Shown piece by piece: positions 12,583-42,408 of a stretch of 62,863 bases of DNA. The translations under genes and the position numbers were made by a program. Origin of the DNA: Clostridiales bacterium. Lineage in GTDB: Bacteria; Bacillota; Clostridia; Ch29. The DNA lies in NCBI GenBank assembly GCA_012728565.1, contig JAAYEV010000021.1:1-62863 (forward strand), given 5' to 3'. Below the pieces are notes generated by a model. The model was not told the origin of the DNA and did no database searches. It saw only the letters and a program-made list of their open reading frames with translations. Within the stretch, counting starts at the first letter, position 1; every line of letters begins with the position of its first letter.

Positions 12583-13053
12583 ATGAAAGCAAAGGGAAGG
12601 AAACAAGCGGGGTTTACGCTTATTGAAGTACTTGTAGCCCTCGCGGTCCTGGGGATTGTAATTCCCCCTGTCCTGGGGCTTTTTACCGCTGCAGCGCATA
12701 GAAATTACAACAGTAAAAGGAATACAGCAGCCTTGACCGTGTCAAGGGACATTATGGACAGGATTAAAGCAGGGGACATTAACTCTGCCAACGGGGAAAG
12801 AGAGATAAAAAACTACAGGGAGCGGTACGGGGTGGAAATATATATATCCTGCACAGACATCTACAATGGCGGCACCCTTAAAATGGTTAAGGTATACGTT
12901 ACGCCGCAGCTTGGCATGGATCCGGAGACTGAGGGGATAATGCTGGCTTCCTATGCCTCCCATTCAAATATTGAAGAGATGGATACAAGTCTGCTTTGCC
13001 AAACGGTACCCGTTGGCGGCGAGGATGACACGCTGGGGATAGGGGAGCAGTAA
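12583..13053 (+). CDS. minor pilin (prepilin-type N-terminal domain, PilV-like)
   Basis: MKAKGRKQAG/FTLIEVLVALAVLGIV. ATG 12583 follows GAGGTGG. Confidence 0.8.
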   Translation: MKAKGRKQAGFTLIEVLVALAVLGIVIPPVLGLFTAAAHRNYNSKRNTAALTVSRDIMDRIKAGDINSANGEREIKNYRERYGVEIYISCTDIYNGGTLKMVKVYVTPQLGMDPETEGIMLASYASHSNIEEMDTSLLCQTVPVGGEDDTLGIGEQ

Positions 13054-13100
13054 CCTCCAAGTACAGGCCCTATTAGCAAATAACCGGGCGGTGTTTCGAT

Positions 13101-13574
13101 ATGAAGCGTATTCACGGCAAAGGGGGTTTTTCAATAGCAGAACTCTTGATAGCCCTCGGCTTGACAAGCCTTGTAGCTGCGGCTTCGTTTATGGTCTACT
13201 TTGCAGGGGCAAAGGCCTGGAAGAGGGCGGAAAACCTGGTGGAGGTTCAGCAGAACCTGAGGATAGCCATGAATACTTTAAACACCGAGATAAGAAAAGC
13301 CGATTATTTCAAAATACAGCATGGAAACAGGGAAATCACGATTAGCTACCCAAACGGGTCAACCAAGGGATACAAGTACCATCCGGCCTCCGGTGAAATA
13401 AGGATATCTGAAAGCGGCGCCACAGTGGCAATGCATATTGACGATTTGAAATTCAGTTACCGGGACGGCCTCATAATTATTGAGATTACTACCAAAGCCA
13501 TGGAAGGCGTCCGGGGGGAAAAATATACCTTCAGCATATATGCCAGGGGGAAGGCGGAAGATGACCGGTTATAG
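13101..13574 (+). CDS. minor pilin (prepilin-type N-terminal domain, PilW-like)
   Basis: MKRIHGKGG/FSIAELLIALGLTSLV. Confidence 0.75.
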   Translation: MKRIHGKGGFSIAELLIALGLTSLVAAASFMVYFAGAKAWKRAENLVEVQQNLRIAMNTLNTEIRKADYFKIQHGNREITISYPNGSTKGYKYHPASGEIRISESGATVAMHIDDLKFSYRDGLIIIEITTKAMEGVRGEKYTFSIYARGKAEDDRL

Positions 13575-14085
13575 GGAGGGTTCAGCCCTGGTAATGGTCA
13601 TGCTCTTCACCTTTGTTATAACCTTGCTGGGCACAGCGATTATGGGAGTGGCCATTAACGAGTACAGGATGGAAGCGGCACACAGGAACAGCGTAAAGGC
13701 CTATTATCTTGCCGAAGCCGGGTTGGAAAAGGCAGTATACGAGATTTCACAAATGAAGGCCATTGTACCGGGGTTTCTCAAACAAATGCAGTGGAAAATG
13801 GTAAAAGAGGACCTTGGCCTTGTCGAACCGGGGGTCCGGGGGGATTACTTGGTTACAGTGGAAGACGTTGAACTTATTGATGTAATACTTGCCGGCGAAG
13901 GAGAAAACAGTGAAGTGTACAAGAGCGTATATGAAATAAAGCTGAAGTCAATGGCGGTATACAAAGAAGCTCCGGCGGGAATCGAAGCCCATATACTGGT
14001 GGAGGACTATGAAGAAACCGGTATGGATAACAGGGTGGAGGTCTGCCGTTGGAGACAGATAAGGGGGATAGGAGATGAAAATTAA
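13561..14085 (+). CDS. PilX-N-terminal-domain pilus assembly protein
   Basis: EGSALVMVMLFTFVITLLGTAIMGVAINEY hydrophobic N-terminus followed by YYLAEAGLEKA. ATG 13561 overlaps the end of the previous gene. Confidence 0.7.
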   Translation: MTGYREGSALVMVMLFTFVITLLGTAIMGVAINEYRMEAAHRNSVKAYYLAEAGLEKAVYEISQMKAIVPGFLKQMQWKMVKEDLGLVEPGVRGDYLVTVEDVELIDVILAGEGENSEVYKSVYEIKLKSMAVYKEAPAGIEAHILVEDYEETGMDNRVEVCRWRQIRGIGDEN

Positions 14086-14338
14086 AAATTACATGGAGGA
14101 CGTGGTTATTCACCTGCTTTACAATCTTGTTAAGGACAGGGAAAATGTTTGCAAGTGCGAGAAATGCCTCAGCGATATTGCGGCAATTGCGCTGAACAGG
14201 CTGCCTCCTCATTACGTAGTGTCCGAAAAGGGTGAAGTGTACTCAAAGGTGCTGAATATGTCCATACAGTTTGAAGCGGATGTGACAACGGCTATCCTGG
14301 AAGCCATTGAAAGGGTGTCAAAGAATCCAAGGCATTAA
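14075..14338 (+). CDS. ComFB (late competence development protein) domain protein
   Basis: 87 aa with MEDVVIHLL, the CKCEKCLSDIAAIALNRLPPHYV motif, and C-terminal KNPRH, as in the ComFB family. Confidence 0.8.
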   Translation: MKIKNYMEDVVIHLLYNLVKDRENVCKCEKCLSDIAAIALNRLPPHYVVSEKGEVYSKVLNMSIQFEADVTTAILEAIERVSKNPRH

Positions 14339-14360
14339 AGGGTATGGATGGGGTGAAAAT

Positions 14361-15812
14361 ATGCCTTTGTTAAACAGGAAAATACTGTGCTTGGATATAG
14401 GCAGCAGCGCCATAAAATGGATGGTGTTTGACGGGAAAAGACGCTTGCTGTATGATTGGGGTATATCTGAAACACCAGAGGGTTGGGTGAAGGGCGGAAG
14501 GATTATTGAACAATGCGGCGTTGCACAAAGAATTAACGAGGTTTTAAGGTCCTCGGGAGGGAAACCATCCGGTGTGCTGGTTTCTTTCTTTTGCCCTGAA
14601 ATGATAATAAGAACGGTGATGCTGCCAAAGCTGGACCCTAAGGAACTGGAAAGGGTCGTAAAATTCGAAGTGGAACATTTGCTATCACAGGGCGCCGAAA
14701 AATATGTTACGGACTATAGGGTACTGGGGGAAGTACTGCAGCAGGGGTCCGTTCAGGTGAAGGTTCTGATTGCGGCAGTGCCTTCGGAGATAGTTAAGGG
14801 ATACTTGGGGCTTTTTAAAAGGTTAAGCCTAAAACCACTGGCGCTGGATTTTCACGGCAATTGTATATCCAGGACTGTCGGTCTAATAAATAAAGACTCC
14901 AAGGGAGAACGGCAGCTGGTGGTGGATATAGGGGCTTCCACTGCTGCAATAACCATTGTGGAAAGAGAATCCCCGGTGTTTACAAGGCTTATATATATAT
15001 CCGACACTGAACAGCTGTTTAAGGATGTATGCCACTCCGTTGAGTTTTTCAGAACAAGAAGTGGAAGCAGTATTGATACAATTGTAATGGCAGGAGGCAG
15101 CAGTCATTTAAAGGAGCTTGGAAGCCGCCTGTCATCCGTTCTGGGGATAAGAGTAGTTTCATTATCCGCCGAACTGCAGCCGGTTTTCAAGGGGGAATTC
15201 CCCCGCGAAAAAGCTGAAACCTTTGCCAATGTACTGGGTTTAGCCTTGGGGGATAGGAAGAATAAGGACAGGGACATAAACCTTCTTCCCGAAAAATACA
15301 GGGATACACGGGAAAAAAGAAGGGCCAAAGGAACAAAGTTGGCGGCGGCGGTACTGGCCGGTACTACGGCAGCAGGAGCCATACTGCTTCCCTTGTATTA
15401 TATTGATGGTTTGAAAAGCAGGAGTGCAGTAATACGGGACGAGGCGGCAGGCTGGGAAACGATAATGGAATACATCGAAAACATGGAAGACCTGCGCAGG
15501 GAGATGGAGCTTAGAAAAAACGTGTACGAAATGCTTAAGTCCCAGCGAAGGGAATGGTCTTTTATGCTTGATGAAATAGGCCGCAGCGTTCCCGATAAAG
15601 TTTTGCTTGTTTCGGTTAGTTTTGTATACCCGGATGGGATTAAGATTATCGGTGAGGCACCGGATTACGCGGCGGTAGCCCGGCTGGCTGTAATACTGGG
15701 GCAAATTGAGGATATTATCGCAGCGGAGCCGGTGAGCATTGCCGCTTCGAGGAAAGGAACCTTTGACTTTGAATTAAGGTGCCTTTTAAGGGGTGAGGCG
15801 GATGTGTATTAA
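14361..15812 (+). CDS. pilM: PilM-PilN fusion protein (actin-like ATPase fused to PilN TM/periplasmic module)
   Basis: N-terminal LCLDIGSSAIKW ASKHA fold. At ~aa 320: INLLPEKYR, a TM segment and a coiled coil (PilN signature). ATG 14361 follows GGGGTG. Confidence 0.85.
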   Translation: MPLLNRKILCLDIGSSAIKWMVFDGKRRLLYDWGISETPEGWVKGGRIIEQCGVAQRINEVLRSSGGKPSGVLVSFFCPEMIIRTVMLPKLDPKELERVVKFEVEHLLSQGAEKYVTDYRVLGEVLQQGSVQVKVLIAAVPSEIVKGYLGLFKRLSLKPLALDFHGNCISRTVGLINKDSKGERQLVVDIGASTAAITIVERESPVFTRLIYISDTEQLFKDVCHSVEFFRTRSGSSIDTIVMAGGSSHLKELGSRLSSVLGIRVVSLSAELQPVFKGEFPREKAETFANVLGLALGDRKNKDRDINLLPEKYRDTREKRRAKGTKLAAAVLAGTTAAGAILLPLYYIDGLKSRSAVIRDEAAGWETIMEYIENMEDLRREMELRKNVYEMLKSQRREWSFMLDEIGRSVPDKVLLVSVSFVYPDGIKIIGEAPDYAAVARLAVILGQIEDIIAAEPVSIAASRKGTFDFELRCLLRGEADVY

Positions 15813-16464
15813 CCTGAGCAAGAGGGAGAAAGTGCTGGTGCTTCTGGCTTTTGCGGTGGTACTGTTTTTCTTATACCACAGGTATTACCTTGTTCCCATA
15901 CTTGAGGAGGCCGCGGCGATAAAGGAAGAGATGCGAAAGAGCCAGGAAAGATTTACAAACCTTATAACGGGCGGTAGTGATATAGGCACACTTGAGAAAA
16001 GGATGGAAGAAATAAAGTCCAACCTGGGGGGGATGGAGATAGCATTGCCGCCGGGTCCAAATACTCCCGAGATAATAACCCAGATAGAAAACTGTTCCAA
16101 GGCCGCCGGTGTAGAGTTGGGAAGAATGGATTTCTTAGAAATTGCGGCACCGCAAGGAAGGCCGGGGGAACAAAAACAGGGGGTACATTACATAAAGGTG
16201 CCGGTTCAAGTACATATTTCAGGGTCCTATGGCGGTATTATGGCCTTTATTAAGGCGCTGGAAGAGTCGGAGAGACTCTATAGCATCACAGGTTTTGACC
16301 TATATAATGCCGGGCAGGAGAACGGGCACATCTTGAACATGGATATTGAATTATGTGCTTACGCGCTGCCGATGGGGGAGAAGCCGGTGCAAAACCCTTC
16401 AGCCTACGGGCTTACAGAGTACCAATACCTTAGGGAAAACCCCTTCGCCCCTGCAGCCGAATAA
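15802..16464 (+). CDS. pilO: PilO-like pilus assembly protein
   Basis: N-terminal TM, a coiled coil, and a ferredoxin-like C-terminus. Position after pilMN. Confidence 0.75.
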   Translation: MCINLSKREKVLVLLAFAVVLFFLYHRYYLVPILEEAAAIKEEMRKSQERFTNLITGGSDIGTLEKRMEEIKSNLGGMEIALPPGPNTPEIITQIENCSKAAGVELGRMDFLEIAAPQGRPGEQKQGVHYIKVPVQVHISGSYGGIMAFIKALEESERLYSITGFDLYNAGQENGHILNMDIELCAYALPMGEKPVQNPSAYGLTEYQYLRENPFAPAAE

Positions 16465-24558: not shown

Positions 24559-25155
24559 GTGATGGTATTAAGAAGAAAGACAGTGGTACTGTCATTGTTG
24601 GTGTTACTGTTAATTGTTATCGCGGTGGTAAATCATAATCTGGGGAGGGAAATTGCCGGCGACAACAGCCTAACCTTCGTAAAAGATGAGGTTTCCTGGG
24701 AACCGGATGTACCTGAGCCGGAAGGAGACCTAGCGTTGGACAGCGAAGACACCGGCAACATAGAAATCGAGGAGGGAGTGGAAACAAGCGCCGCCGGCCT
24801 TGCTACGTCCAGTTTCTTTATCCAGTCCAGGCTTGACAGGAACAAAAACAGGAGCTTCTATATAGAAACGTTAAACGGTATTGTTTCCGATCCGAACATA
24901 GACAGCGGCGTCAAGGAAATGGCCCAGGCAGAAATGCTTTCACTGATTAAAAAAAGTGAAACCGAAAGTATAATTGAGAACCTGATCAAGGCCAAGGGAT
25001 TTAAGGACGCCCTGGTGATTATGGGAGAGGATTCGGTAAATGTAATCGTGGATTCTGAAAAGCTTACCCAGGCTCAAGTGGCTCAAATAAAGGATATTGT
25101 AACCCGGGAGGCGGACGTTGAAACGGATAAAATAAAGATTATGGAAAAACAATAG
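24559..25155 (+). CDS. spoIIIAH: stage III sporulation protein AH
   Basis: N-terminal TM, acidic linker, and a YscJ-like C-domain (KGFKDALVIMGEDSVNVIV). Last gene of the block. Confidence 0.88.
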   Translation: MMVLRRKTVVLSLLVLLLIVIAVVNHNLGREIAGDNSLTFVKDEVSWEPDVPEPEGDLALDSEDTGNIEIEEGVETSAAGLATSSFFIQSRLDRNKNRSFYIETLNGIVSDPNIDSGVKEMAQAEMLSLIKKSETESIIENLIKAKGFKDALVIMGEDSVNVIVDSEKLTQAQVAQIKDIVTREADVETDKIKIMEKQ

Positions 25156-25227
25156 AATTATTTGTAAAGGCAAGGTCCATTTGGTATAATAAAGACTATA
25201 ATTAATACGCTTGATGGGGGTGAGAAC

Positions 25228-25617
25228 TTGTCGGACGAAGTTAGAAAGGATACCGAAGATTTCGGCACCGTGAAAATATCCGATGATGTGGTTTCCATAA
25301 TATCCGGAATAGCAGCCACGGAAGTTAAGGGAGTTGCCGGCATGAGCGGAGGCATTGCAGGGGGCATCGCAGAGCTGCTGGGCAGGAAAAACCAGTCCAA
25401 GGGTGTTAAGGTTACCATAGGGGAAAAGGAAGTTAACATAGACTTGCATGTAATCATGGAGTACGGGGTAAAAATACCCGACGTTGCATGGGAGATTCAA
25501 GAGAAGGTCAAAAAAGCCGTGGAAACCATGACGGGTTTGAACGTTGTCGAAGTGAACATACACGTACAGGGCGTGACCATGGATAAGGTAAAAGATGGAG
25601 AGGACCAGGAAAAATAA
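25228..25617 (+). CDS. Asp23/Gls24 family envelope stress protein
   Basis: KISDDVVSIISGIAATEVKGVAGM and VNIHVQGV are typical of Asp23. Confidence 0.88.
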   Translation: MSDEVRKDTEDFGTVKISDDVVSIISGIAATEVKGVAGMSGGIAGGIAELLGRKNQSKGVKVTIGEKEVNIDLHVIMEYGVKIPDVAWEIQEKVKKAVETMTGLNVVEVNIHVQGVTMDKVKDGEDQEK

Positions 25618-25640
25618 AGATTGCTTTTTCAAATAAAGAT

Positions 25641-25668
25641 AACCTCCTTTCCGGGAGGTTTGTTCTTT
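25641..25668 (+). terminator. intrinsic terminator-like hairpin
   Basis: AACCTCC-tttccg-GGAGGTT followed by TGTTCTTT. Confidence 0.6.
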
Positions 25669-25790
25669 AGCGGAAAAAAGGTGGACAAGCATAAATAAAA
25701 GCCAGTGGATCACTCCGGGTAGATTGGCGGGCCTTATGGAAATAATATTATTGCTGCACAAAGCCGGAAGTGAGACAGGAGGTTTGACGA

Positions 25791-28397: not shown

Positions 28398-28646
28398 ATG
28401 GAAAATGGATTAAGCTTTGAAAAGGCCATGGAAAGAATGGAAGAAATAATAGCCCTGCTGGAGGAAGGGGATTTGGACCTGGACAAGTCACTTGAGGTCT
28501 TTGAAGAGGGCATACGGCTTTACCGGAACTTATCCCGAAGACTGAAAGAGGCAGAGGGCAGGATTAAGATAATCATGGAGGAACAGGAAGGCGAGCAGGT
28601 ACAATCCGGCATCGACCTGGAGGGAGATAATGACCTTGACTTTTAA
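28398..28646 (+). CDS. xseB: exodeoxyribonuclease VII small subunit
   Basis: 82 aa with SFEKAMERMEEII..LE.GDL.LD.SL..FEEGI. Follows xseA. Confidence 0.9.
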   Translation: MENGLSFEKAMERMEEIIALLEEGDLDLDKSLEVFEEGIRLYRNLSRRLKEAEGRIKIIMEEQEGEQVQSGIDLEGDNDLDF

Positions 28647-29514
28647 AAGAGCGATGGAAGAAAAAAAGAAGCGGGTGGAAGAGTGCCTCAAAAACTGTAT
28701 CAAGCATGAACAGGGCGTGCCCGGCATAATATACGAGGCGATGGAGTACAGCCTGTTTGCCGGAGGGAAAAGGCTTAGGCCGATACTGGTGATGGCGGGC
28801 TGTGAAATTTGCGGCGGTGACGTCTCAAGGGTAATGCCGTTGGCGTGCGCGGTGGAACTGATTCATACCTATTCACTTATTCACGACGACCTTCCGGCTA
28901 TGGACAACGATGATTACAGGCGGGGCAAACCGACAAATCACAAAGTTTTCGGGGACGGTATTGCCGTTCTTGCCGGGGACGGTCTTTTGAACTATGCCTT
29001 TGAAGTTATGCTGGATTTATATCCCCTTGACGGAGGTAACTTGAAAGCAGTAAAGGAAATAGCGAGGGCTGCCGGCGTGACGGGGATGATAGGGGGCCAA
29101 GTTATGGACCTTATGTACGAAGGAAAGCGGGCGGGCCTTGACGAGTTAAAGGAAATGCACCTTAGGAAAACCGGTGCCCTTATATGTGCGTCCTTGCTGG
29201 CAGGAGCCTTAAGCGCGGGATGCAGTGATGCGGAGTACGAAAATATACGGAAGTTCGGAAATAATTTGGGACTTGCATTTCAAATAAGAGACGATATCCT
29301 TGATGTTATAGGAAAAGAAGAGACCCTTGGGAAAAAGGTAGGCAGCGATGTTTCCAAGGGTAAGTCCACCTACGTATCAATACTTGGGCTGGATGAATCC
29401 ACAAGACTTGTAAAAAAACTTATAAATGAAGCAAAGGAAAGCCTGGCGGCCTTTGGCGAAAAGGCGAAGTTTCTAACTGAGCTGGCTGACAGCCTCATTG
29501 ACAGGGAGTTTTAG
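28630..29514 (+). CDS. ispA: farnesyl-diphosphate synthase (polyprenyl synthetase)
   Basis: FARM motif LIHDDLPAMDNDDYRRGKP and SARM motif FQIRDDILD. Confidence 0.92.
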   Translation: MTLTFKRAMEEKKKRVEECLKNCIKHEQGVPGIIYEAMEYSLFAGGKRLRPILVMAGCEICGGDVSRVMPLACAVELIHTYSLIHDDLPAMDNDDYRRGKPTNHKVFGDGIAVLAGDGLLNYAFEVMLDLYPLDGGNLKAVKEIARAAGVTGMIGGQVMDLMYEGKRAGLDELKEMHLRKTGALICASLLAGALSAGCSDAEYENIRKFGNNLGLAFQIRDDILDVIGKEETLGKKVGSDVSKGKSTYVSILGLDESTRLVKKLINEAKESLAAFGEKAKFLTELADSLIDREF

Positions 29515-29531
29515 AACAAGGAGGAGGACGC

Positions 29532-29975
29532 TTGAACTTTTTTTCGCGGGTATTGGAAAACAAAGTTTTGATGATAGCGCTGGTGTCCTGGGCGGTGGCG
29601 CAGGGGAGCAAAGTTCTAATCGAAGTTCTTAGTTACAGGAAAGTGGATTTAAAGCGCTTTGTCGGTTCGGGAGGAATGCCCAGCTCTCATTCCGCCTTTG
29701 TAATGGCGCTGTCAACCGGCATAGGCAAACTGGAGGGCTGGGAATCGCCGCTTTTTGCCATAGCTATGTCCTTTGCCTTCGTGGTTATGTACGATGCCGC
29801 TGGGGTGCGCAGGGCTGCCGGCAAGCAAGCCGAAATACTCAACATAATAATTAAAGACGTGATTGAGCACAAAGTGCTCAAGGAAGAAAGACTTAAGGAG
29901 CTAATAGGCCATACTCCGATAGAAGTTATAATAGGCGGTATTATTGGAGTTATAACAGCCAATATTATGGTTTAA
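29532..29975 (+). CDS. divergent PAP2 (YuiD-like acid phosphatase/haloperoxidase-related) membrane protein
   Basis: GGMPSSHSAFV and MYDAAGVRRAAGKQAE motifs, 4-5 TM segments. Confidence 0.85.
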   Translation: MNFFSRVLENKVLMIALVSWAVAQGSKVLIEVLSYRKVDLKRFVGSGGMPSSHSAFVMALSTGIGKLEGWESPLFAIAMSFAFVVMYDAAGVRRAAGKQAEILNIIIKDVIEHKVLKEERLKELIGHTPIEVIIGGIIGVITANIMV

Positions 29976-29980
29976 ACGGA

Positions 29981-30009
29981 TTTGAAGGGCGCATGGTATC
30001 ATGTTATAA
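29981..30009 (+). promoter_or_regulatory. sigma-A type promoter for the OLE-like RNA
   Basis: TTGAAG (29981-29986), a 17-nt spacer, then TATAAT (30004-30009). Confidence 0.6.
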
Positions 30010-30015
30010 TATGCA

Positions 30016-30611
30016 CATATCGAGGTGGCGCAGTATTCTAGTCAGAGGTTTTGCTTCTGAAGGCGGGGCTAAAAATCCGTCAAAGGGCACATCGATGAAG
30101 TTCCTTGGATCGGCTTTCGACGCCCAGTCGGGGGCCTTTTCAGGGAGTAAGGAGGCCGGGGCGATCTGCAAAGGCATGCAGGCGTTGACCCTCCCTCCGC
30201 GGAGACCCCGATAACCGGATACAGGGTTCGGGGAGTAACCTGCAGATAAGACTGCAGCGTAGCCTGCCTTGAGTGAAACGGGCGGATGATTGTCAGGCTA
30301 GTCCGAAGGGCCCTTCGGAGGATGCCAATGCTTTCGAAACCCTTTTTGCAAAAGAGGCTAGGAAGTAGAACCGATGCCGGGGAAAACCCCTAGACTGTTC
30401 CGAAAGAGGCATAATGAGGATTAGAGTGCGGACTAAGTGGCAATCCAGCCCTGTCGCTGGCAACACGACAGAGACGAATTTAAAGGGAAACCGCCGACCT
30501 GGCGACAGGCCGGTATTCGACTGGGAAAGCCTGCTGGACCTAAGCCGCAAAATTTACTCAATATGCCGCCACCTGGAAGCCTTGCTGATAGTGCATACTA
30601 TCAGCTTTTTT
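30016..30611 (+). ncRNA. OLE (ornate, large, extremophilic) RNA candidate, ~600 nt
   Basis: No credible ORF on either strand. Dense short G+C-rich hairpins. It has its own promoter and a 3' hairpin plus U6 (30584-30611). The ispA...[RNA]-oapA-dxs-tlyA-nadK-argR-recN synteny is characteristic of OLE. Ends are approximate. Confidence 0.75.
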
Positions 30612-30698
30612 ATATTCTTTCCCTTTCAATGGGATGATATAATTTTAATATATGTAATTATACTAATTCTATAACAAAAAAGAGTGAGGTAATTAGTA

Positions 30699-31295
30699 TT
30701 GAAACCAAGAGCAAAACCCGGGAAGAAAAAAAAGAGCCGCTGGGTGGTTTTGATAACCCTGTGGACCTTTCTGCTGGCACTTACTTTCAGTTTTCTTTCG
30801 GAAATGGTTGTAAGAAATTTGCCGCTTGTTGCCGCATACGTGATACTTATCGTTATAGTAATCGTTGGAATCGTTTTTGATATAATAGGGATAGCCGTCA
30901 CAGCCTCCGACCAAAAACCGCTCAACGGAATGGCCGCTCAGAAAATACCCGGGGCCAGGGAAGCCGTGATGCTTCACAAAAAAGCCGGGGCAGTGTCAAA
31001 TTTTTGCAATGATGTAATAGGCGACATATGCGGAATACTAAGTGGGGCGGCGGGAGCGGTTATAGTTACCAGGTTTGTGGCGATATATCCCAATATAAGG
31101 GGAGCAGTCCTTGGGGTGATGCTGAGCAGCTTTATTGCAGCAGTAACCGTCGGTGGCAAAGCCATAGGCAAGAACATTGCCATTGATAACGCAAGCGAGA
31201 TTACCTTTAAGGCGGGAAGATTCCTAAACGTTTTTTACAGAAAAACAGGTATCAGGGTATTGGATGATGACAAGAATAGCGGAAGAAAGCGGTGA
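30699..31295 (+). CDS. oapA: OLE-associated protein A-like small 4-TM membrane protein
   Basis: 198 aa with a basic N-terminus (KPRAKPGKKKKSR) and four predicted TM helices. It lies immediately downstream of the OLE-like RNA and upstream of dxs. Confidence 0.7.
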   Translation: MKPRAKPGKKKKSRWVVLITLWTFLLALTFSFLSEMVVRNLPLVAAYVILIVIVIVGIVFDIIGIAVTASDQKPLNGMAAQKIPGAREAVMLHKKAGAVSNFCNDVIGDICGILSGAAGAVIVTRFVAIYPNIRGAVLGVMLSSFIAAVTVGGKAIGKNIAIDNASEITFKAGRFLNVFYRKTGIRVLDDDKNSGRKR

Positions 31296-31301
31296 TATGT
31301 A

Positions 31302-33260
31302 ATGCATGAAATACTTGGAAGCATTAAGGGACCGGAAAGCTTGAGAGAGATGAGCGATATGCAGCAAAAACTACTGGCAAGGGAGCTCAGGCAGGTTATT
31401 GTAGATACCGTATCCAAAACCGGGGGGCACCTGGCATCAAACCTTGGAGTGGTGGAGCTTACTATAGCGCTGCATACCGTGTATTCCAGTCCAAGGGACA
31501 GGATAGTATGGGATGTGGGGCACCAGTCCTATGTACATAAGCTTCTGACAGGCCGGTACAAAGATTTTAGCACCCTAAGGCAGTTCGGCGGAATTTCGGG
31601 GTTCCCCAGGATTGATGAAAGCCCCCACGACGTATTCGGTACGGGGCACAGCAGTACCTCAATATCCGCCGCGCTGGGCATTGCCGCTGCCAGGGACCTA
31701 AAAGGTGAAAAATTTTCGGTGGTGGCTGTAATAGGAGACGGTGCGATGACCGGAGGAATGGCCTTTGAGGCATTAAACCATGCCGGGCACCTGCAAAAGG
31801 ACATTACGGTGGTTCTTAATGAAAATGAAATGTCCATAGCCCAGAACGTGGGCAGCCTGTCCAAACACTTAAGTCGTATTAGGACCCATCCACGGTACTT
31901 CAGGGTAAAGGAAGATATTGAGGGCCTGATAAAACGAATTCCTGCGGTGGGCAACAGCATGGCCAAGGTTGCGGAAAAGGCAAAGGACAGCATCAAGTAC
32001 TTCCTTGTGCCCAGCATGTTGTTCGAAGAGCTTGGGTTTACATATTTGGGGCCCATAGACGGGCACGACCTGGTTTTGCTTAAGGATGTACTGAAAAGGG
32101 CAAAAAAGCTAAAGGGACCGGTCTTGATACATGTCGTAACAAAAAAGGGCAAAGGATACCGGCCGGCTTTAAACAATCCCGACCGGTTCCATGGCGTGGG
32201 CTGTTTTGAAGTAAAAACCGGGGAAATAATCAGGGAGGGCAACGGGCAGAGTTATTCGTCAGCCTTCGGCAAGGCAATGCTGGAGCTGGCGGCCGAGGAC
32301 CCGAGAGTGGTCGCGATAACTGCGGCCATGGCGGATGGGACAGGCCTTTCGGAATTCGCGAATGTCTTTCCGGACAGGTTTTATGACGTAGCCATAGCCG
32401 AACAGCACGCAGTCACCTATGCGGCGGGCTTGGCAAGGGAAGGCTTTAAGCCGGTATTCGCTGTGTATTCAACGTTTTTGCAGCGGGCGTACGACCAGGT
32501 TATTCACGATGTCTGCCTGCAAAACCTGCCGGTGGTGTTTGCCGTGGACAGGGCAGGGATAGTGGGAAATGACGGGCCCACTCACCATGGGGTATTCGAT
32601 TTGTCATTCTTAAGCCATATACCCAATATGCAGGTGCTTGCACCATGCTGCTGCAGCGAAATGAAGGAAATGTTGAGGTATGCACTAAACAGCGAGGGAC
32701 CGGTCGCGATTAGGTACCCAAGGGGAGAAGGCCGGACGGTGAAGGGCTATACTCCCGGCCCGTTGGTAAAGGGCAAATCGGAAGTGGTAATAAAGGGTAA
32801 AGACCTGTGCATTATTGCCGTTGGCAATATGCTGCCGAGGGCATGTAGGGCGGCGGAACAGCTTCAAAAGAAGGGCATAAAGGCAGGCGTTGTAAATGCC
32901 CGGTTTGTTAAACCCGTTGATACGGAAATGCTGGCGGAGATACTGAAGGACTATGACAAGATAGCGGTGCTGGAAGACAATGTTATCCGGGGCGGATACG
33001 GAAGTTACCTGCTGGAGCAGATGAATTCAATGGGCCTTGATGCTATGGATTATAGGATAAAGCTATTGGGCTTCCCGGACGAATTCGTTACTTTCGGTGA
33101 CAACGACAGCCTGTACAGGGCTTACGGTCTGGACGATACCGGTATATATTACAGTTTGTTGGACCTGGCAGAAGGAGGAAAGGGAAGTGGCGTCAGCAAA
33201 GAAAAGGTTGGATACGCTTCTGGTGGACAGGGGGTTGTTTCCAAGCAGAGAAAGAGCTAA
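31302..33260 (+). CDS. dxs: 1-deoxy-D-xylulose-5-phosphate synthase
   Basis: GGHLASNLGVVELT, GHSSTSISAALG, GDGAMTGGMAFEALN, AIAEQHAVT, DRAGIVGNDGPTHHG. The C-terminal ~25 codons overlap tlyA. Confidence 0.95.
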   Translation: MHEILGSIKGPESLREMSDMQQKLLARELRQVIVDTVSKTGGHLASNLGVVELTIALHTVYSSPRDRIVWDVGHQSYVHKLLTGRYKDFSTLRQFGGISGFPRIDESPHDVFGTGHSSTSISAALGIAAARDLKGEKFSVVAVIGDGAMTGGMAFEALNHAGHLQKDITVVLNENEMSIAQNVGSLSKHLSRIRTHPRYFRVKEDIEGLIKRIPAVGNSMAKVAEKAKDSIKYFLVPSMLFEELGFTYLGPIDGHDLVLLKDVLKRAKKLKGPVLIHVVTKKGKGYRPALNNPDRFHGVGCFEVKTGEIIREGNGQSYSSAFGKAMLELAAEDPRVVAITAAMADGTGLSEFANVFPDRFYDVAIAEQHAVTYAAGLAREGFKPVFAVYSTFLQRAYDQVIHDVCLQNLPVVFAVDRAGIVGNDGPTHHGVFDLSFLSHIPNMQVLAPCCCSEMKEMLRYALNSEGPVAIRYPRGEGRTVKGYTPGPLVKGKSEVVIKGKDLCIIAVGNMLPRACRAAEQLQKKGIKAGVVNARFVKPVDTEMLAEILKDYDKIAVLEDNVIRGGYGSYLLEQMNSMGLDAMDYRIKLLGFPDEFVTFGDNDSLYRAYGLDDTGIYYSLLDLAEGGKGSGVSKEKVGYASGGQGVVSKQRKS

Positions 33261-33999
33261 GGGAACAATTATGGCCGGACTTGTAAGGGTGGATGGCAAA
33301 GTGATGGACAAGGCGGGGACCAGGGTCAGCGAGGATGCAGTAATTTCAGTGGATGAGGACCCCATTCCCTACGTGGGGAGGGGAGGACTGAAACTGGAAA
33401 AGGCCTTGGAACTCTTCCAAGTTGACGTTACCGGATATACAGCCGTTGATATTGGTGCTTCCACCGGGGGTTTTACCGACTGTCTTTTAAAAAGGGGCGC
33501 AAAAAAGGTATATGCCATTGACGTGGGGTACGGCCAGCTTGACTGGAGACTGCGCCAGGACACGAGGGTTGTGGTCATGGAGCGTACAAACATTAGGTTT
33601 GTCAAGCCGGAGGACCTGGGAGAAAGCTGTGACATAGCGGTTATTGACGTGGCTTTTATTTCCCTTACGCTGGTACTGCCGGTGGCAAGGACCTTATTAA
33701 AACCCGGGGGGAAGATTATTGCCCTTATCAAGCCACAGTTTGAGGCGGGACGTGAAAAGGTGGGCCGAAAGGGAATAGTAAGGGACCCAATGGTGCACAG
33801 GGAAGTGATACAAAAAATATATGACTTTATTATGGGTATGGGCTTAAAGGTGCGGGGGCTTACCCATTCCCCCATAACCGGAGCCGGGGGAAACATAGAA
33901 TACCTTGTATATGCATGTGATGAGGATATTGAGGGCGCCGGGGCTGAAAATGTGCAGGAAATGATAGAAAGGGTTGTGGAAGAATCCCACCGCGTATAG
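33187..33999 (+). CDS. tlyA: TlyA-family rRNA 2'-O-methyltransferase (S4 domain + FtsJ-like)
   Basis: KKRLDTLLVDRGLFPSRERAKGTIMAG (S4 domain) and VDIGASTGGFTDCLL (SAM motif). GTG 33187 follows GGAGGAAAGGGAA, so the ORF-track start at 33097 is too long. Confidence 0.9.
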   Translation: MASAKKRLDTLLVDRGLFPSRERAKGTIMAGLVRVDGKVMDKAGTRVSEDAVISVDEDPIPYVGRGGLKLEKALELFQVDVTGYTAVDIGASTGGFTDCLLKRGAKKVYAIDVGYGQLDWRLRQDTRVVVMERTNIRFVKPEDLGESCDIAVIDVAFISLTLVLPVARTLLKPGGKIIALIKPQFEAGREKVGRKGIVRDPMVHREVIQKIYDFIMGMGLKVRGLTHSPITGAGGNIEYLVYACDEDIEGAGAENVQEMIERVVEESHRV

Positions 34000-34068
34000 T
34001 GACCAAAATAGAGGAAAAATGGAATATTTGTAGAATGTCTTGATAAAAGGAAGGGGTATTGAGCAAAA

Positions 34069-34944
34069 ATGCAGGAAAAGGCCGTTAAACTCGATACAAT
34101 AGGCATTATTCCAAACCTACAGAAGTCCGGCAGCCTTGAAGTAGCCCGGGAGCTGATAAAATGGCTGGAGGATAAGGGCTCCCGCGTGCTTCTTAATGAA
34201 ATAACCGCCAGCGAGCTGGAGATGCCGGGCTTGGCGGAAAAACCGTCGGAAATATATAAAACTTCAGATTTCATAATAGTGCTGGGCGGAGATGGAACAC
34301 TGCTCTCGGTTGCAAGACAGGTGCTTTGGCAGCAGACGCCTATACTGGGTATCAACCTGGGGCACTTGGGATTCCTCACCGAATTGGAACAGGATAACAT
34401 GTACGACGGCCTGGAAAGGATTAGGAACGGGGATTACCGGGTTGAGAAAAGGATGATGCTGGAAGCGGTCCTTATAAAAAACAACATGATAACCGACAAC
34501 TTCTGGGCGCTTAATGACATAGTGATATCAAAGGGGTCCTTTTCGAGGATTATACAGCTAAAGACTTATATTAACCAAAGCTACGTGGAAACCTATTCGG
34601 CGGACGGCATAATCATTTCCAGTCCCACAGGCTCGACCGCCTACTCCCTGTCTGCGGGCGGGCCAATCCTTAGTCCCGATGTTGCCGGCATGGTTATTAC
34701 TCCCATAAGCCCGCATATGATGAGCTCCAGGTCAATAGTTATATCCGACAAGGAAGAGGTTAAAGTGGAGGTTGTGGGCGATAAAAACGATGTCATGCTG
34801 ACCATAGACGGGCAGCAGGGCTACAGGCTGAACGCAGGGGACTTAATCATTGTGCGGAGGTCGGAGTTTTCAGCTAACATGATAAAGCTTAGGGATAAAA
34901 ACTTTTACGACGTGCTGAGGACAAAGCTTAACGAAAGAAGGTAG
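34069..34944 (+). CDS. nadK: NAD kinase
   Basis: VLGGDGTLL, NLGHLGFL, NDIVI, DGIIISSPTGSTAYSLSAGGPI. Confidence 0.93.
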   Translation: MQEKAVKLDTIGIIPNLQKSGSLEVARELIKWLEDKGSRVLLNEITASELEMPGLAEKPSEIYKTSDFIIVLGGDGTLLSVARQVLWQQTPILGINLGHLGFLTELEQDNMYDGLERIRNGDYRVEKRMMLEAVLIKNNMITDNFWALNDIVISKGSFSRIIQLKTYINQSYVETYSADGIIISSPTGSTAYSLSAGGPILSPDVAGMVITPISPHMMSSRSIVISDKEEVKVEVVGDKNDVMLTIDGQQGYRLNAGDLIIVRRSEFSANMIKLRDKNFYDVLRTKLNERR

Positions 34945-34964
34945 AAGAAAAAGGAGGTTGGCAA

Positions 34965-35414
34965 ATGAAGATTGCCCGGCATGCCAAGATTTTGGAACTC
35001 ATTGAAAACAAGGAAATCGAGACCCAAGAGGAATTGGCTGAGGAGCTCAAGACCTGCGGATTTAACATAACCCAGGCGACGGTGTCGAGAGATATCAAGG
35101 AGCTGAGGCTTATAAAAACCCTAAGCGACACCGGCAAGTACAAGTATTCTACCATCAAGCCCCATGACAGCGATTTGGCGGACCGGCACGTTAAGGTATT
35201 CAAAGAAACGGTGCTTAAAGTGGACTATGCCATAAACATAGTGGTCATAAAGACAATTCCGGGAGCGGCCCAAGGGGCTGCCGCAGTGGTCGACGCGCTA
35301 GACTGGCAGGAAGTGGTTGGCACAATAGCCGGGGACGATACCATATTTGTTCTTACCAGGAATGAAAAAAACGCTGTGAACATAATGGAGAAATTAAAGA
35401 AACTAAAGGGATAG
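34965..35414 (+). CDS. argR: arginine repressor
   Basis: RHAKILELI...TQEEL..EL...G..ITQATVSRDIKEL wHTH and C-terminal GTIAGDDTIFV. Confidence 0.93.
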   Translation: MKIARHAKILELIENKEIETQEELAEELKTCGFNITQATVSRDIKELRLIKTLSDTGKYKYSTIKPHDSDLADRHVKVFKETVLKVDYAINIVVIKTIPGAAQGAAAVVDALDWQEVVGTIAGDDTIFVLTRNEKNAVNIMEKLKKLKG

Positions 35415-35433
35415 AAACGGGGGCCGGTAATAC

Positions 35434-37137
35434 ATGTTGCTGGAACTTAACATATCCAATTTTGCACTCATTGATAGTGTATGCCTAATGTTGGAAAGCG
35501 GGCTGAATGTTCTGACCGGCGAGACTGGAGCCGGGAAGTCCATAATGATAGACGCGGTAAACATGGTACTGGGGGAAAGGGCGGATACCGACATTATAAG
35601 GACAGGGGCCGACAAGGCTGTGGTTGAAGCCCTTTTTAAATGTGACGACATTGAGGGGATTGAAGAAGTCCTGCAAGGACTGGGCATAGACCTGGACCGG
35701 GACAAGACATTGGTGCTTGGGAGGGAAATAAGGAGCGGGAGGAGCGTAAGCAGGATAAACGGAAGGCCGGTGCCGCTGTCCAGCATAAGGGAGATTAGCC
35801 GGCATATCATTGACATCCACGGGCAGCACCAGCACCAGTCGCTGCTGGATGTACAAAACCATATAGATATACTGGACCATTTCGGCGGGTGCGGGGTACT
35901 GGAACAAAGAAAAAGGGTGGCATCGCTGTACCAAAGGCTTCTAGAACAAAAGAAAGCCTTGGAAGAGGTACTGCTGAGCGAAATGGAAAGGGAGAGAAAT
36001 ATTGACCTTTATTCGTACCAGGTGCAGGAGATAGAAGCCGCAAGGCTTAGAGAAGGGGAAGAGGAGGAACTGCTGCGGCAGAGAGAGGTATTGGCCAACG
36101 CGGAAAAGATATTCCAGTCGCTGGCACAATCCTATGAACTGCTGTATGGGGGCGATCATGGTACAGGCTTAAGCATAATAGACGGTTTGGGCCAGGTGGA
36201 CCAGCTTCTTGTTCCCTTCAAAGATATGGATGAAAGGATAGGCGGTTTTTATAGTGACATAGAATCCTGCCATGTATCCCTTAAGGAAATTACAAGGGAT
36301 ATTAGGAATATGATCGACGGTTTCGAGTTTGACCCCGGCATGCTAAATGCTACTGAGGAAAGACTTGACCTCATAAACAAGCTTAAGCGCAAATACGGCA
36401 AAACGATAGAAGAGGTCCTGGAATACTGTCGGCGCAAGTGTGACGAGCTGGAAAAGCTTAAAAACAGCCGGGTGGAGCAGGAACACCTGGAAAAAGAAAT
36501 CGCCGAAACGGAAAAGGAAATGGAAAAGGAATGCGCCTTGCTAACCGAGATGAGAAAAGAAACGGCAAATCTTCTTGCCAATAAAATCACCGGGGAAATT
36601 AAAAAACTTGGCATGAAAAACGGGGTATTTGATATATCGATAGAGAGGGCGGCGGGTTTCACAAAAAAGGGTGCTGATATGGTGGAGTTTTTGTTCAGCG
36701 CAAACCTCGGGGAGCCGCTAAAGCCTTTAAGCAAAATAGCTTCCGGCGGTGAAATGTCGAGAATTATGCTTGCCATAAAAACCTGCCTTGCCGATACCGA
36801 CAGTATTCCAACGCTGATATTCGACGAGATTGATGCCGGAATTAGCGGAAGAACCGCCCAGGTGGTGGCACAGCAGCTGGCCAGTGTATCCAAGCAGCAC
36901 CAGGTGGTTTGTGTTACCCATCTTCCGCAGATAGCGGCAATGGCGGACAACCATTACCTTATTAGCAAGGAAGAAAGGGACGGTCATACATATACAAGGC
37001 TGGAACTGTTAAACAGGGACCAAAGGGTCAGGGAACTGGCGAGGCTTCTTGGGGGTGCGAAGGTTACAGACCTTACCATAAGACACTCGGAAGAAATGCT
37101 CAAAATGGCAGAAAATTTTAAAAAAAGTGCGGTTTAG
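35434..37137 (+). CDS. recN: DNA repair protein RecN
   Basis: LTGETGAGKSI Walker A, a long coiled coil, ASGGEMSRIMLA signature, and LIFDEIDAGISG Walker B. Confidence 0.95.
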   Translation: MLLELNISNFALIDSVCLMLESGLNVLTGETGAGKSIMIDAVNMVLGERADTDIIRTGADKAVVEALFKCDDIEGIEEVLQGLGIDLDRDKTLVLGREIRSGRSVSRINGRPVPLSSIREISRHIIDIHGQHQHQSLLDVQNHIDILDHFGGCGVLEQRKRVASLYQRLLEQKKALEEVLLSEMERERNIDLYSYQVQEIEAARLREGEEEELLRQREVLANAEKIFQSLAQSYELLYGGDHGTGLSIIDGLGQVDQLLVPFKDMDERIGGFYSDIESCHVSLKEITRDIRNMIDGFEFDPGMLNATEERLDLINKLKRKYGKTIEEVLEYCRRKCDELEKLKNSRVEQEHLEKEIAETEKEMEKECALLTEMRKETANLLANKITGEIKKLGMKNGVFDISIERAAGFTKKGADMVEFLFSANLGEPLKPLSKIASGGEMSRIMLAIKTCLADTDSIPTLIFDEIDAGISGRTAQVVAQQLASVSKQHQVVCVTHLPQIAAMADNHYLISKEERDGHTYTRLELLNRDQRVRELARLLGGAKVTDLTIRHSEEMLKMAENFKKSAV

Positions 37138-39707: not shown

Positions 39708-40685
39708 ATGCATAATATTGGCGTGACCGTTAATATACATGGAAACAGTTCTACTCGATCCCATGAAACTAAGTTAACTGCAAAACCTTTTATAAAATGG
39801 GCAGGAGGAAAGACCCAGTTATTGGAGGAATTAGAAGCAAGGCTTCCTAAGGCTATTGCAGATAAGAAGACTATTGAAAGTTATATTGAACCCTTTGTAG
39901 GAGGTGGAGCATTATTCTTTTTCTTAAAAAGAGAGTATACGGTAAAAAAAGCATACCTGTGCGATATCAATAGAGAAGTTATCATCGGATACAAAGTAAT
40001 ACAAAACAATCCAAAAGAATTGATCAACCAACTCGAAGTGCTTCAAGATGAGTACATAAATAGGAACAAGGATGAAAGAAAAGACTATTTCTATATGATA
40101 AGGGATAAATATAACAGCCAAGTACAAAGATTTAACTTTGACGAATACAATGAGGACTGGATTAAAAGAGCCTCTTATTTGATATTTTTGAATAAAACAT
40201 GCTTCAACGGATTGTTTAGACAAAACAAGAACGGAAAGTTCAATGTTCCACACGGTAGGTACAAGAAACCAAATATCTGTGACAGGGATAATATAATGGA
40301 AGTAAATAAAGCTCTGAAAAACACAGAAGTCTTTTACGGTGATTTTACGGAAACCAAAGATTTTATCCAAGAAAACAGCCTTGTTTATTTTGACCCTCCA
40401 TATCGTCCAATAAACGCAACATCTAGTTTTACGGGCTATTCTAAGGAAGGATTTGATGATAATGACCAAAAAAGGTTGGCTGCTTTTTTTAAAAGTATGA
40501 ACGCAAAAGGAGCTTATTTAATTCTTAGTAATTCTGACCCTAGAAATCATAACCAATTTGATGATTATTTTGACAAGTTATATGAAGGCTTTAACATAGA
40601 AAGAATCAAGGCCAATAGGCACATAAACTGTTACGGTAATAAAAGAGGCCAGATAAACGAGTTGATTATTAGGAACTATTGGTAA
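39708..40685 (+). CDS. Dam-family (D12 class, DpnM-like) N6-adenine DNA methyltransferase, GATC-type
   Basis: KPFIKWAGGKTQLL, EPFVGGGALFF, FNGLFRQNKNGKFNVPHGRYK, YFDPPYRP, closely parallel to DpnM. Confidence 0.92.
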   Translation: MHNIGVTVNIHGNSSTRSHETKLTAKPFIKWAGGKTQLLEELEARLPKAIADKKTIESYIEPFVGGGALFFFLKREYTVKKAYLCDINREVIIGYKVIQNNPKELINQLEVLQDEYINRNKDERKDYFYMIRDKYNSQVQRFNFDEYNEDWIKRASYLIFLNKTCFNGLFRQNKNGKFNVPHGRYKKPNICDRDNIMEVNKALKNTEVFYGDFTETKDFIQENSLVYFDPPYRPINATSSFTGYSKEGFDDNDQKRLAAFFKSMNAKGAYLILSNSDPRNHNQFDDYFDKLYEGFNIERIKANRHINCYGNKRGQINELIIRNYW

Positions 40686-40699
40686 GGAGGCCTATATAT

Positions 40700-41626
40700 A
40701 TGGCATCGTTTTATGGTAAACGTTTGGGTACTGACAGCCTTGAGGACACTATAGAGAGGTTCCACGAAACAATTATTGACACCAACAGAAGTTACAATTT
40801 TTTTGTAAACTGGGAGAAAGTTGAGCAACATGTTGATAAGTACAAAATCGAAATAAGCATTCTTGACTCCCTAATAGGCAGTCGCAATTTCAATAAAGAC
40901 CTGGAAAACATTTTAAAAAAATACCCTGAAGTATTACCTGTGATACCAATCTTAATAGCGGTCAGAGATGCACGATTAAAAGTCATACGCGACTTTTCAG
41001 ATGCCGATACAGATATAATGGAATACAATTTTACCGAAAGAAAGTTATCAGAACTGGAAATCAGGGTTTTGATCGAATTTTTTGAAAAGACTGGATTGAA
41101 AAACTTTTTTGAGAACCTTTCAACAAAGAGTATTAGAGATTATGTCACCGGTGTCGAAGTAGGAATGGACACCCATGCCAGAAAAAACAGAAGCGGGGAT
41201 TCAATGGAATTGGTTATCAAACCTTTTATCGAAAAGATAAATCTAAAGCATGACAATAGATATATCATATTGTTCCAAAAAAATTTTAACTATCTACAGA
41301 AAAATTTTGGTATTAAGGTTTCTGCATCAATAAGGAACAGAAAGGCTGATTTTATACTAATAAACGCAGATAAAGACAGAGTCGTAAACATAGAAGTCAA
41401 CTTTTATTCCGGTACTGGGTCGAAGCCTCAGGAAATTGTAGATTCATATATAAATCGCCAGGAGGAACTCAAAGAAAACGGCTTTGAATTCATCTGGATC
41501 ACAGACGGTTACGGCTGGAAAGGACAGAAAAACCAGATTGAAAAGGGATTTAGGAAAGTTAATTATCTACTGAATTTACATTTTGTTAGAAAGGGTTTGT
41601 TGGAGGATATCCTATGGATAAACTAA
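40700..41626 (+). CDS. DpnII/MboI-family type II restriction endonuclease (GATC)
   Basis: DYVTGVEVGMDTHARKNRSGD, IEVNFYSGTGSK and WITDGYGW mirror R.DpnII blocks. ATG 40700 follows AGGAGG. Confidence 0.9.
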   Translation: MASFYGKRLGTDSLEDTIERFHETIIDTNRSYNFFVNWEKVEQHVDKYKIEISILDSLIGSRNFNKDLENILKKYPEVLPVIPILIAVRDARLKVIRDFSDADTDIMEYNFTERKLSELEIRVLIEFFEKTGLKNFFENLSTKSIRDYVTGVEVGMDTHARKNRSGDSMELVIKPFIEKINLKHDNRYIILFQKNFNYLQKNFGIKVSASIRNRKADFILINADKDRVVNIEVNFYSGTGSKPQEIVDSYINRQEELKENGFEFIWITDGYGWKGQKNQIEKGFRKVNYLLNLHFVRKGLLEDILWIN

Positions 41627-42408
41627 TAAATTTCAAAGAGGAAATTACAACTGTTTGGTCTTTCCCAGAGAGGGGTGGCTGGGCGACACATAATGCTAAG
41701 TACAGGGGAAATTTTGCACCCCAAATTGCCAGAAATATCATTCTGAGATATTCTAATGAAGGGGATACAGTACTTGACCCAATGGTTGGCGGAGGTACAA
41801 CATTAATTGAAACTAAACTATTGAATAGAAAAGGAATAGGAGTTGATATTAACCCAGAAGCAATTGCGCTGACAAAGAAAAACCTCGAATTTGAATGCGG
41901 CTGTGAATATGAACAGACGGTTCAAATCGGAGATGTTAGAAATATGAACTTTTTAAGCAGTGGAAGTGTTGATTTGATTGTTACCCATCCTCCCTATTTA
42001 AACATAATCAAATATTCAGAAGGGAGAATAGAAGGTGACCTTTCAAATATTTCAGGGGTTAAAAAATTTTGTTCAGAATTGAACAAGGGTATAGCGGAAT
42101 TCTTCAGGGTATTAAAAGAGAATTCCTACTGTGCCGTTTTAATAGGAGATACTAGAAAAAACAAACACTATGTTCCCCTTGCTTTCTACGTAATGCAGTT
42201 GTTTCTTGAAAATGGATTTGTTTTAAAAGAAGATATTATAAAGATTCAGCATAATTGTACATCTACACCCTACTGGGAGAAAAAAGTTAAAGACTACAAT
42301 TTCTATCTTATAATGCACGAGCATCTTTTTGTATTCAGAAAACCGAGGGACGATGAAGACCTAAGCCGTTATAGATACAGCATGGCGAATGCATTATTGA
42401 TGCCCTAA
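41614..42408 (+). CDS. second DNA methyltransferase (N6A/N4C type, motif I before motif IV)
   Basis: WSFPERGGWATHNAKYRGNFAPQIARNII..S.EGDTVLDPMVGGGTT, then DLIVTHPPY. It overlaps the REase stop by 13 nt. Confidence 0.8.
   Translation: MDKLINFKEEITTVWSFPERGGWATHNAKYRGNFAPQIARNIILRYSNEGDTVLDPMVGGGTTLIETKLLNRKGIGVDINPEAIALTKKNLEFECGCEYEQTVQIGDVRNMNFLSSGSVDLIVTHPPYLNIIKYSEGRIEGDLSNISGVKKFCSELNKGIAEFFRVLKENSYCAVLIGDTRKNKHYVPLAFYVMQLFLENGFVLKEDIIKIQHNCTSTPYWEKKVKDYNFYLIMHEHLFVFRKPRDDEDLSRYRYSMANALLMP

Follow-up and report, generated by a model that had tools for sequence, protein, structure and literature searches.

Here we describe the locus lying between a DUF212/PAP2 gene and dxs in a 62,863-nucleotide stretch of DNA (contig JAAYEV010000021.1 of assembly GCA_012728565.1, analysed whole and called the window below). 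The stop of the DUF212/PAP2 gene at 29975 and the TTG start of the next coding sequence at 30699 are separated by a gap of 723 nt, coordinates that we checked against the sequence and that agree with the figure of about 720 nt given in the original prediction for this DNA. That prediction took the gap for the gene of an OLE (ornate, large, extremophilic) RNA and the 198-aa open reading frame (ORF) behind it for the gene of its membrane partner, OapA. Having compared the locus with its relatives in other genomes, we can say with high confidence that what lies between the DUF212 gene and the 198-aa ORF is a canonical ole gene. OLE is among the largest bacterial non-coding RNAs without an established biochemical function, and recent cryo-electron microscopy work suggests that it may span the membrane. 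The features of the gap and its two borders are as follows:

29532-29975, plus strand: DUF212 (divergent PAP2 family, PF02681) gene, 174.3 bits against a Pfam gathering threshold of 26.5
29982-30010, plus strand: very likely ole promoter, with a -35 element TTGAAG (29982-29987), a 17-nt spacer and an extended -10 element TGTTATAAT (30002-30010)
30009-30588, plus strand: OLE RNA gene, given as the extent of the RF01071 match, with a structured core of ~550 nt running from the 5' strand of P1 (30023) to its 3' strand (30574)
30584-30611, plus strand: 3' hairpin GCUGAUAGU-GCAU-ACUAUCAGC followed by U6, with a 9-bp stem (30584-30605) and T6 (30606-30611)
30635-30643, plus strand: second extended -10-like element TGATATAAT, downstream of the ole hairpin and upstream of oapA
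30699-31295, plus strand: oapA, 198 aa, TTG start, Shine-Dalgarno (SD) sequence GAGUGAGG at 30682-30689

Scanning the whole window against Rfam 15 produced a single match above threshold, to OLE (RF01071), with a score of 491.8 bits against a gathering score of 50 and an E-value of 2.7e-141. The match spans 580 nt and covers model positions 1-616 of 616 without truncation, a positive outcome over the full model for the covariance-model search that the original prediction had itself proposed as a test. We then collected 80 genome loci encoding relatives of the 198-aa protein and located OLE in them with nhmmer; the RNA lies directly upstream of the OapA homolog in 75, and the other five have less than 350 nt of upstream DNA. 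Ten of these related loci were re-checked with Rfam and all contain full-length OLE with scores of 471-533 bits, so the score of the window copy is typical. The two closest relatives of the window locus, L001 and L002 (OapA identity 77% and 71%), served for the comparisons at nucleotide level described below.

An alignment of 35 OLE RNAs from 35 species, which we refer to as A1, places the window copy squarely within the family. Members of the family are ~600 nt long, and about a quarter of their nucleotides are nearly invariant. At all 154 columns that are invariant in the 34 other RNAs the window agrees, and it matches 84 of the 86 columns in which conservation reaches at least 90%; its departures are the two sides of one P10 pair in which A-U has been replaced by G-C, a compensatory change. 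At strain level, comparison of six contigs encoding an identical protein revealed one substitution in the 723-nt gap, a change from G-C to G-U in P8 that keeps the pairing.

Of the 159 consensus pairs in the Rfam model, 147 have both partners in the window, 129 of them standard and 18 non-canonical. For the covariation analysis we projected the Rfam consensus on A1 and added three long-range helices, P1, P2 and P3, which were identified by eye from the window and are not annotated in Rfam. The cells of this structure are paired in 86.6% of cases, compared with 40-46% when the partners are slid by 1-3 columns; changes on both sides occur in 130 of 183 pairs; and the covariation score is 0.424, compared with 0.10-0.135 in the slid controls. 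None of 500 shuffles reached any of the observed measures of pairing or covariation. The conserved OLE helices anticipated by the original prediction are present in the window and covary over the 35-species alignment, and the hairpins that it had picked out by inspection were all found where it had placed them (CTGCAG-ataaga-CTGCAG at 30240-30257, TCCGAAGGGCCCTTCGGA at 30302-30319, GGGG-aaaa-CCCC at 30379-30390 and CTGTCG...CGACAG at 30451-30471). The elements of the RNA, in 5' to 3' order, are:

30023-30029 with 30568-30574, plus strand: P1, 95% paired, double changes in six of seven pairs
30031-30034 and 30038-30041 with 30390-30397, plus strand: P2, invariant, containing the invariant UCUAGUCAG at 30037-30045
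30047-30058 with 30361-30372, plus strand: P3/P3.1, 12 bp
30062-30081, plus strand: P4 hairpin with the A-rich loop GCUAAAAA, the loop conserved in 35 of 35 aligned OLEs
30090-30097, plus strand: palindrome CAUCGAUG in the P4a region
30101-30147, plus strand: P5/P5.1, with the loop GCCCA invariant in 35 of 35
30149-30155, plus strand: SD-like AAGGAGG, pairing with CCUCC in P6
30151-30198, plus strand: P6/P6.1, with the loop AAGGCA
30206-30233, plus strand: P7, a variable helix, moderately short
30240-30257, plus strand: P8, a variable helix with a 6-bp CUGCAG stem and a 6-nt loop
30266-30358, plus strand: P9 long arm, with the palindromic apical loop GGGCCC at 30308-30313
30379-30567, plus strand: domain 2, with P10 (30379-30389), the 3' strand of P2 (30390-30397) and P11 (30399-30407)
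30408-30567, plus strand: P12-P15 four-way-junction region
30451-30471, plus strand: P13, with the GNRA loop GCAA and the bulged C30457, a candidate OapB site
30493-30514, plus strand: P14.1, with the GNRA loop GCGA

These elements correspond closely to those mapped in other OLE RNAs. The 12 bp of P3/P3.1 equal the published combined length of P3 and P3.1 (PMC12265935), and the inner part of the helix (P3.1; columns 37-43) is 90% paired with all seven pairs covarying. OapA sites have been mapped near P2 and P4a (PMC12265935), regions in which the window has UCUAGUCAG and CAUCGAUG, respectively. The pairing of AAGGAGG with CCUCC reproduces the published mimic of an SD/anti-SD duplex at the bS21 site (PMC12054373), and the GNRA tetraloop and single-nucleotide bulge that OapB requires in P13 (PMC7936274) both have counterparts in the putative OapB site of the window. 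An A-rich P4 loop is a published dimer contact and the P5.1 and P6.1 loops are published kissing-loop partners (PMC12265935), while the palindromic loop of P9 is the published self-kissing bridge of the dimer (PMC12286853). The corresponding sequences (GCUAAAAA, GCCCA, AAGGCA and GGGCCC) are all present in the window OLE, for which a dimer is predicted by analogy.

The core of the P9 loop is palindromic in A1 wherever the tip of the arm is present, being GGCC in 27 of 29 RNAs (one of them, L070, counted by eye), AGCU in one and GAUC in one, a pattern that reproduces the covariation behind the dimer bridge of Kretsch et al. (PMC12286853). As a separate observation, the apical part of P9, and hence the palindromic loop, is absent from six of the 35 aligned OLEs (L037, L048, L049, L064, L067 and L077; columns ~360-400). 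These tipless RNAs keep the full P13/OapB site and score highly with Rfam where tested (L049, 505 bits; L067, 510 bits).

The protein encoded directly downstream was examined with the same question of family membership in view. OapA is described as a four-transmembrane protein with a DxxxD motif, a basic cluster and a predicted CorB-like fold, encoded directly downstream of ole and distantly related to the CNNM domain of MpfA (PMC11332333, PMC12265935). The identification of the 198-aa protein as OapA in the original prediction is upheld by each of these features that we tested, as well as by the position of OLE directly upstream in 75 of the 80 loci. We found 2817 homologs of the protein, mostly of ~200 aa and some with PF01595 (the CNNM/DUF21 domain); the window protein is 39-52% identical to most homologs in the scan and 71-77% identical to its two closest relatives. 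The motif D105-V-I-G-D109 is invariant in 31 of 31 aligned homologs. Hydrophobic segments at ~15-37, 45-70, 101-125 and 133-153 are matched in an AlphaFold2 model (pLDDT 75.9) by four long helices at 10-39, 43-69, 96-129 and 135-163, and lysine and arginine residues are concentrated in the first 14 residues (eight), the 71-100 loop (five) and the C-terminal 45 residues (11), giving an isoelectric point of 10.3. Pfam and NCBIfam assign no family to the protein at default thresholds, and a profile built from the OapA alignment had no match among PDB sequences at E-values up to 1. A permissive Pfam scan gave PF01595 (CNNM) at 18 bits, under the cut-off of 28.4, as has been published for OapA. The top PDB matches in a Foldseek search with the model were MtCorB (7M1T, 7M1U) and the transmembrane domain of CorC (7CFG, 7CFF), with probabilities of 0.92-1.0 and TM-scores of 0.39-0.56.

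The promoter proposed in the original prediction, TTGAAG-17-TATAAT, lies at 29982-30010 as described, and with its TG (extended -10) it is the sole such site in 29500-31400. Across the related loci a TTGAnn-17-TGnTATAAT element is found at a near-fixed distance of ~19-22 nt upstream of the invariant CAGUAUUCUAG; it is kept in position in 53 of 67 loci, which score at least 9/12, and is conserved in both L001 and L002. Since it matches the proximal ole promoter that has been found experimentally to be active in B. halodurans (PMC3413148), this promoter is very likely real, and the predicted start of ole transcription falls near 30017, just before P1.

The second extended -10-like element of the window, TGATATAAT, is likewise conserved in L001 and L002. 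We rejected a second promoter after the hairpin as a general feature of these loci, as one was found in 5 of 28 compared with 9% in shuffles; in the window itself TGATATAAT may weakly drive transcription of oapA-dxs. Expression of oapA in most lineages probably relies on read-through from ole, in line with the polycistronic transcripts reported for B. halodurans. We also noted an extra ~190 nt between the ole hairpin and oapA in one of the two closest relatives (L001:5790-5990), which is absent from both the window and L002.

The 9-bp hairpin and U6 tract predicted at the end of the RNA were both confirmed, the stem having a centroid energy of -12.6 kcal/mol and a z-score of -2.7. This hairpin is probably an intrinsic terminator or 3'-end element that sets the 3' end of ole. 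Near-invariant arms, GCUGAURG and CYRUCAGC, recur at a similar offset after P1 in 35 of 76 OLE loci from many genera (the window, L001, L002, L004, L006, L007, L009, L010, L012-L015, L018, L020, L022, L024, L026, L028, L029, L031, L035, L038-L041, L043, L050, L058-L061, L063, L065, L074 and L078), with a U-rich tract following in 32 of the 35, and the spacer (2-16 nt) and the loop (5-9 nt) vary freely around them. Mean pairwise identity among the 12 hairpin-bearing species of A1 is 0.86 in the arms, 0.34 in the spacer and 0.43 in the loop; the covarying OLE helices P1, P3, P12, P13, P14 and P14.1 have identities of 0.49-0.71 in the same species. There is also complementarity, save for a one-nucleotide bulge, between the 5' arm and the invariant 5' CUAGUCAG of OLE. 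The Rfam OLE model ends in an unstructured tail that does not include the hairpin, a permissive search of 30540-30720 against Rfam, comprising the 3' tail and the spacer in front of oapA, found only the end of OLE, and the word “terminator” is absent from the part of the OLE literature that we searched. One might go further and regard the hairpin as a sequence-specific, clade-conserved 3' element of OLE that is left out of current models, Rfam's included, and that does more than a generic terminator, a suggestion that we offer tentatively and consider rather unlikely. Possible roles for such an element would be as a protein-binding site, in protection of the 3' end, or in alternative pairing with the 5' CUAGUCAG.

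The position of the RNA on the same strand upstream of oapA-dxs, with a terminator-like hairpin at its end, raises the question of whether it is a cis-acting leader, that is, a riboswitch or attenuator regulating oapA-dxs, rather than a stand-alone RNA. Most relatives have no evident promoter between the hairpin and oapA, so read-through must occur. However, the match of the region to the OLE family is full length, and in H. halodurans OLE is a stable, abundant component of a ribonucleoprotein that acts in trans (PMC3413148, PMC12265935). With its ~550 structured nucleotides, binding sites for proteins and dimer contacts, such an RNA greatly exceeds the needs of an attenuator, and the terminator-like hairpin lies outside the conserved OLE core. 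We therefore think it very improbable that the region is a leader of this kind.

Even less probable, to the point of being negligible, is that the window holds a decaying or non-functional remnant of OLE. Such a remnant might be suspected from the short P8 and from P7 and P9, which are both on the short side (P7, 30 nt, median 34; P9, 74 nt, median 79), together with the 18 non-canonical pairs among the 147. Nevertheless, a copy that keeps all 154 invariant columns and whose two departures from the conserved ones are compensatory looks functional; its Rfam score falls within the range of the ten other genomes, its promoter, terminator and oapA are intact, and the sole strain-level substitution preserves a pair. 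The short P8 is common to both closest relatives, which indicates that it has been inherited and maintained. The idea that the gap encodes one or more small proteins, with the RNA structure incidental, can draw on ORFs of 57-86 aa on both strands (66-86 aa in the original prediction, which likewise took them as non-coding), and can practically be dismissed. In-frame stops interrupt four of the five in L001, in L002 or in both, and the fifth (30004-30177, minus strand) is shifted out of frame by an indel in each of these relatives; six independent assemblies with identical OapA have no gene annotated in the gap, and substitutions there have no third-position bias and follow base-pair covariation instead.

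Four points weigh against our identification of a canonical, working OLE/OapA system. Among 44 P8 segments that we measured, that of the window is the shortest, with 16 nt between anchors compared with a median of 29. The Foldseek E-values for CorB and CorC are weak (0.07-0.6), and the likeness of OapA to these proteins rests on the probability and specificity of the top matches. Genes for OapB, OapC and bS21 were not found in the window, and neither was the gene for MpfA; as the window is only 63 kb long, these missing genes tell us nothing about the genome, for which published correlations predict oapB, oapC and rpsU and no mpfA. Finally, we infer by analogy, for this host, where the OLE transcript starts and ends, how abundant it is, and that it dimerises, localises to the membrane and binds proteins. 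With regard to the first point, P7 and P8 are shortened or absent in published OLE variants (PMC11332333), and neither of them contributes to the dimer contacts (PMC11332333, PMC12265935).

The genes flanking ole and oapA follow a familiar order. From the 5' side, the window contains type IV pilus genes, efp, spoIIIAA-AH, an Asp23-family (yqhY-like) gene, nusB, a TsaD-family gene, xseA, xseB and ispA; then DUF212, ole and oapA; and then dxs, tlyA, nadK, argR, recN, spoIVB, spo0A and a DpnII-type restriction-modification system. This is the published OLE neighbourhood, yqhY included (PMC12265935). Pfam confirmed the neighbours given in the original prediction, both upstream (Asp23 (yqhY-like), nusB, xseA, xseB, ispA and DUF212) and downstream (dxs, tlyA, nadK, argR and recN), the product of tlyA being an FtsJ/S4 methyltransferase. 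The genes closest to ole and oapA, those from dxs to recN forming the conserved downstream cluster (31302-37137), are:

28630-29514, plus strand: ispA (Pfam)
31302-33260, plus strand: dxs (Pfam)
33271-33999, plus strand: tlyA (Pfam; start taken from other assemblies)
34069-34944, plus strand: nadK (Pfam)
34965-35414, plus strand: argR (Pfam)
35434-37137, plus strand: recN (Pfam)

The DUF212 gene is no special feature of this locus: the same place, after ispA and before ole, is taken by a DUF212 gene in 28 of 60 related loci from many genera, and the gene is a common but optional neighbour of ole.

The host is an uncultured spore-forming member of the Bacillota from biogas fermenters. The spoIIIAA-AH, spoIVB, spo0A and spoIIM genes of the window support its description as a spore-former, and the biogas-fermenter origin of identical contigs supports that as an anaerobe, in keeping with the anaerobic or extremophilic Bacillota expected as hosts of OLE. 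Contigs with an identical OapA, whose flanking 4.6 kb are also nearly the same, derive from metagenome assemblies of biogas fermenters and of other sources. The nearest genomes, with the OapA identities of 77% and 71% given above, are metagenome-assembled genomes of uncultured Bacillota.

Several other features of the window deserve mention. A Cu/Zn superoxide dismutase gene is present at 4592-5083, in an apparent anaerobe from biogas reactors. A type IV pilus or competence-like cluster at 7585-16464 encodes a PilB-like ATPase, PilC, pilins with N-methylation motifs, a prepilin peptidase, a PilX-like protein, a ComFB-family protein, PilM and PilO. The DpnII-type (GATC) restriction-modification system, at 39708-42408 directly downstream of spo0A, consists of a D12-class adenine methyltransferase, a DpnII endonuclease and a second N6/N4 methyltransferase. 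On a practical level, users who pick ORFs by length should be aware of a 273-aa minus-strand ORF at 24940-25761 that has no Pfam match and overlaps both spoIIIAH (24559-25155) and the Asp23/yqhY-like gene (25228-25617) on the plus strand, and that is almost certainly spurious.

By analogy with better-studied species, the system might work as follows. The ole gene would be transcribed from its own extended -10 promoter and its transcript ended by the hairpin and U6. The resulting RNA would be abundant and stable, with a two-domain fold such as that of the H. halodurans and Clostridium OLE RNAs (PMC12265935, PMC12286853, PMC3413148), and would dimerise through its P4, P5.1/P6.1 and P9 loops, as in other species. 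A dimer of the CNNM-like, four-helix OapA would hold the RNA at the membrane, possibly across it by way of P3, and the RNA would also bind OapB, OapC and bS21 (PMC7936274, PMC12054373). As in other species, the particle would protect the cell against alcohols, cold and an excess of Mg2+, and help it to live on poor carbon sources. The most likely role of OLE, argued again from these relatives, would be the control of, or coupling to, divalent-cation transport mediated by OapA, together with stress signalling.

What the window copy adds is a standard OLE/OapA system, with P8 at its minimum, in an uncultured lineage of spore-formers found in biogas reactors; this fits the published view of P7 and P8 as dispensable. 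The window copy is a routine member of an already known and well-catalogued family, with more than 2,800 representatives (PMC11332333), and is found by standard Rfam annotation; nothing in it departs from published OLE biology except the very short P8 helix. The by-products of the comparison, namely the extended -10 element at a fixed position in most loci, the sequence-conserved 3' hairpin in about half of them and the presence of DUF212 in about half of ispA-ole junctions, could be useful for modelling OLE expression and 3' ends, and leave knowledge of the OLE family unchanged.

Comparison with known systems places the window OLE with the full-length RNAs of Halalkalibacterium halodurans and Clostridium acetobutylicum, with which it shares the P1-P15 architecture, the invariant nucleotides, the dimerisation loops, the OapB site, the SD/anti-SD mimic, the proximal promoter, the downstream oapA and the ispA/dxs/tlyA/nadK/argR/recN neighbourhood. 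It differs from them in being ~30-40 nt shorter than the consensus, mainly because of the minimal P8 and trimmed P7, and in having the clade-specific conserved 3' hairpin that is not in the Rfam model. The shortened P7 and P8 recall OLE variants 1 (TANB77-type) and 2 (RF39-type) (PMC11332333). However, unlike many variant 1 RNAs the window OLE has a P9 of near full length and an intact P13 OapB site, and unlike variant 2 it keeps both P7 and P8; moreover, its host is a spore-former from biogas reactors, whereas the hosts of the variants are reduced-genome gut symbionts. The window protein has no notable difference from OapA of the BH2780 type, being alike in its ~200 aa, DxxxD motif, basic termini and weak CNNM similarity. 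With MpfA, CorB and CorC, the CNNM-family Mg2+ transporters, it shares the transmembrane fold and a sub-threshold PF01595 match, but it has no CBS or CorC/HlyC domains, four transmembrane helices rather than three, and the DxxxD motif, and as its Pfam score falls below the cut-off it is not a member of the CNNM family.

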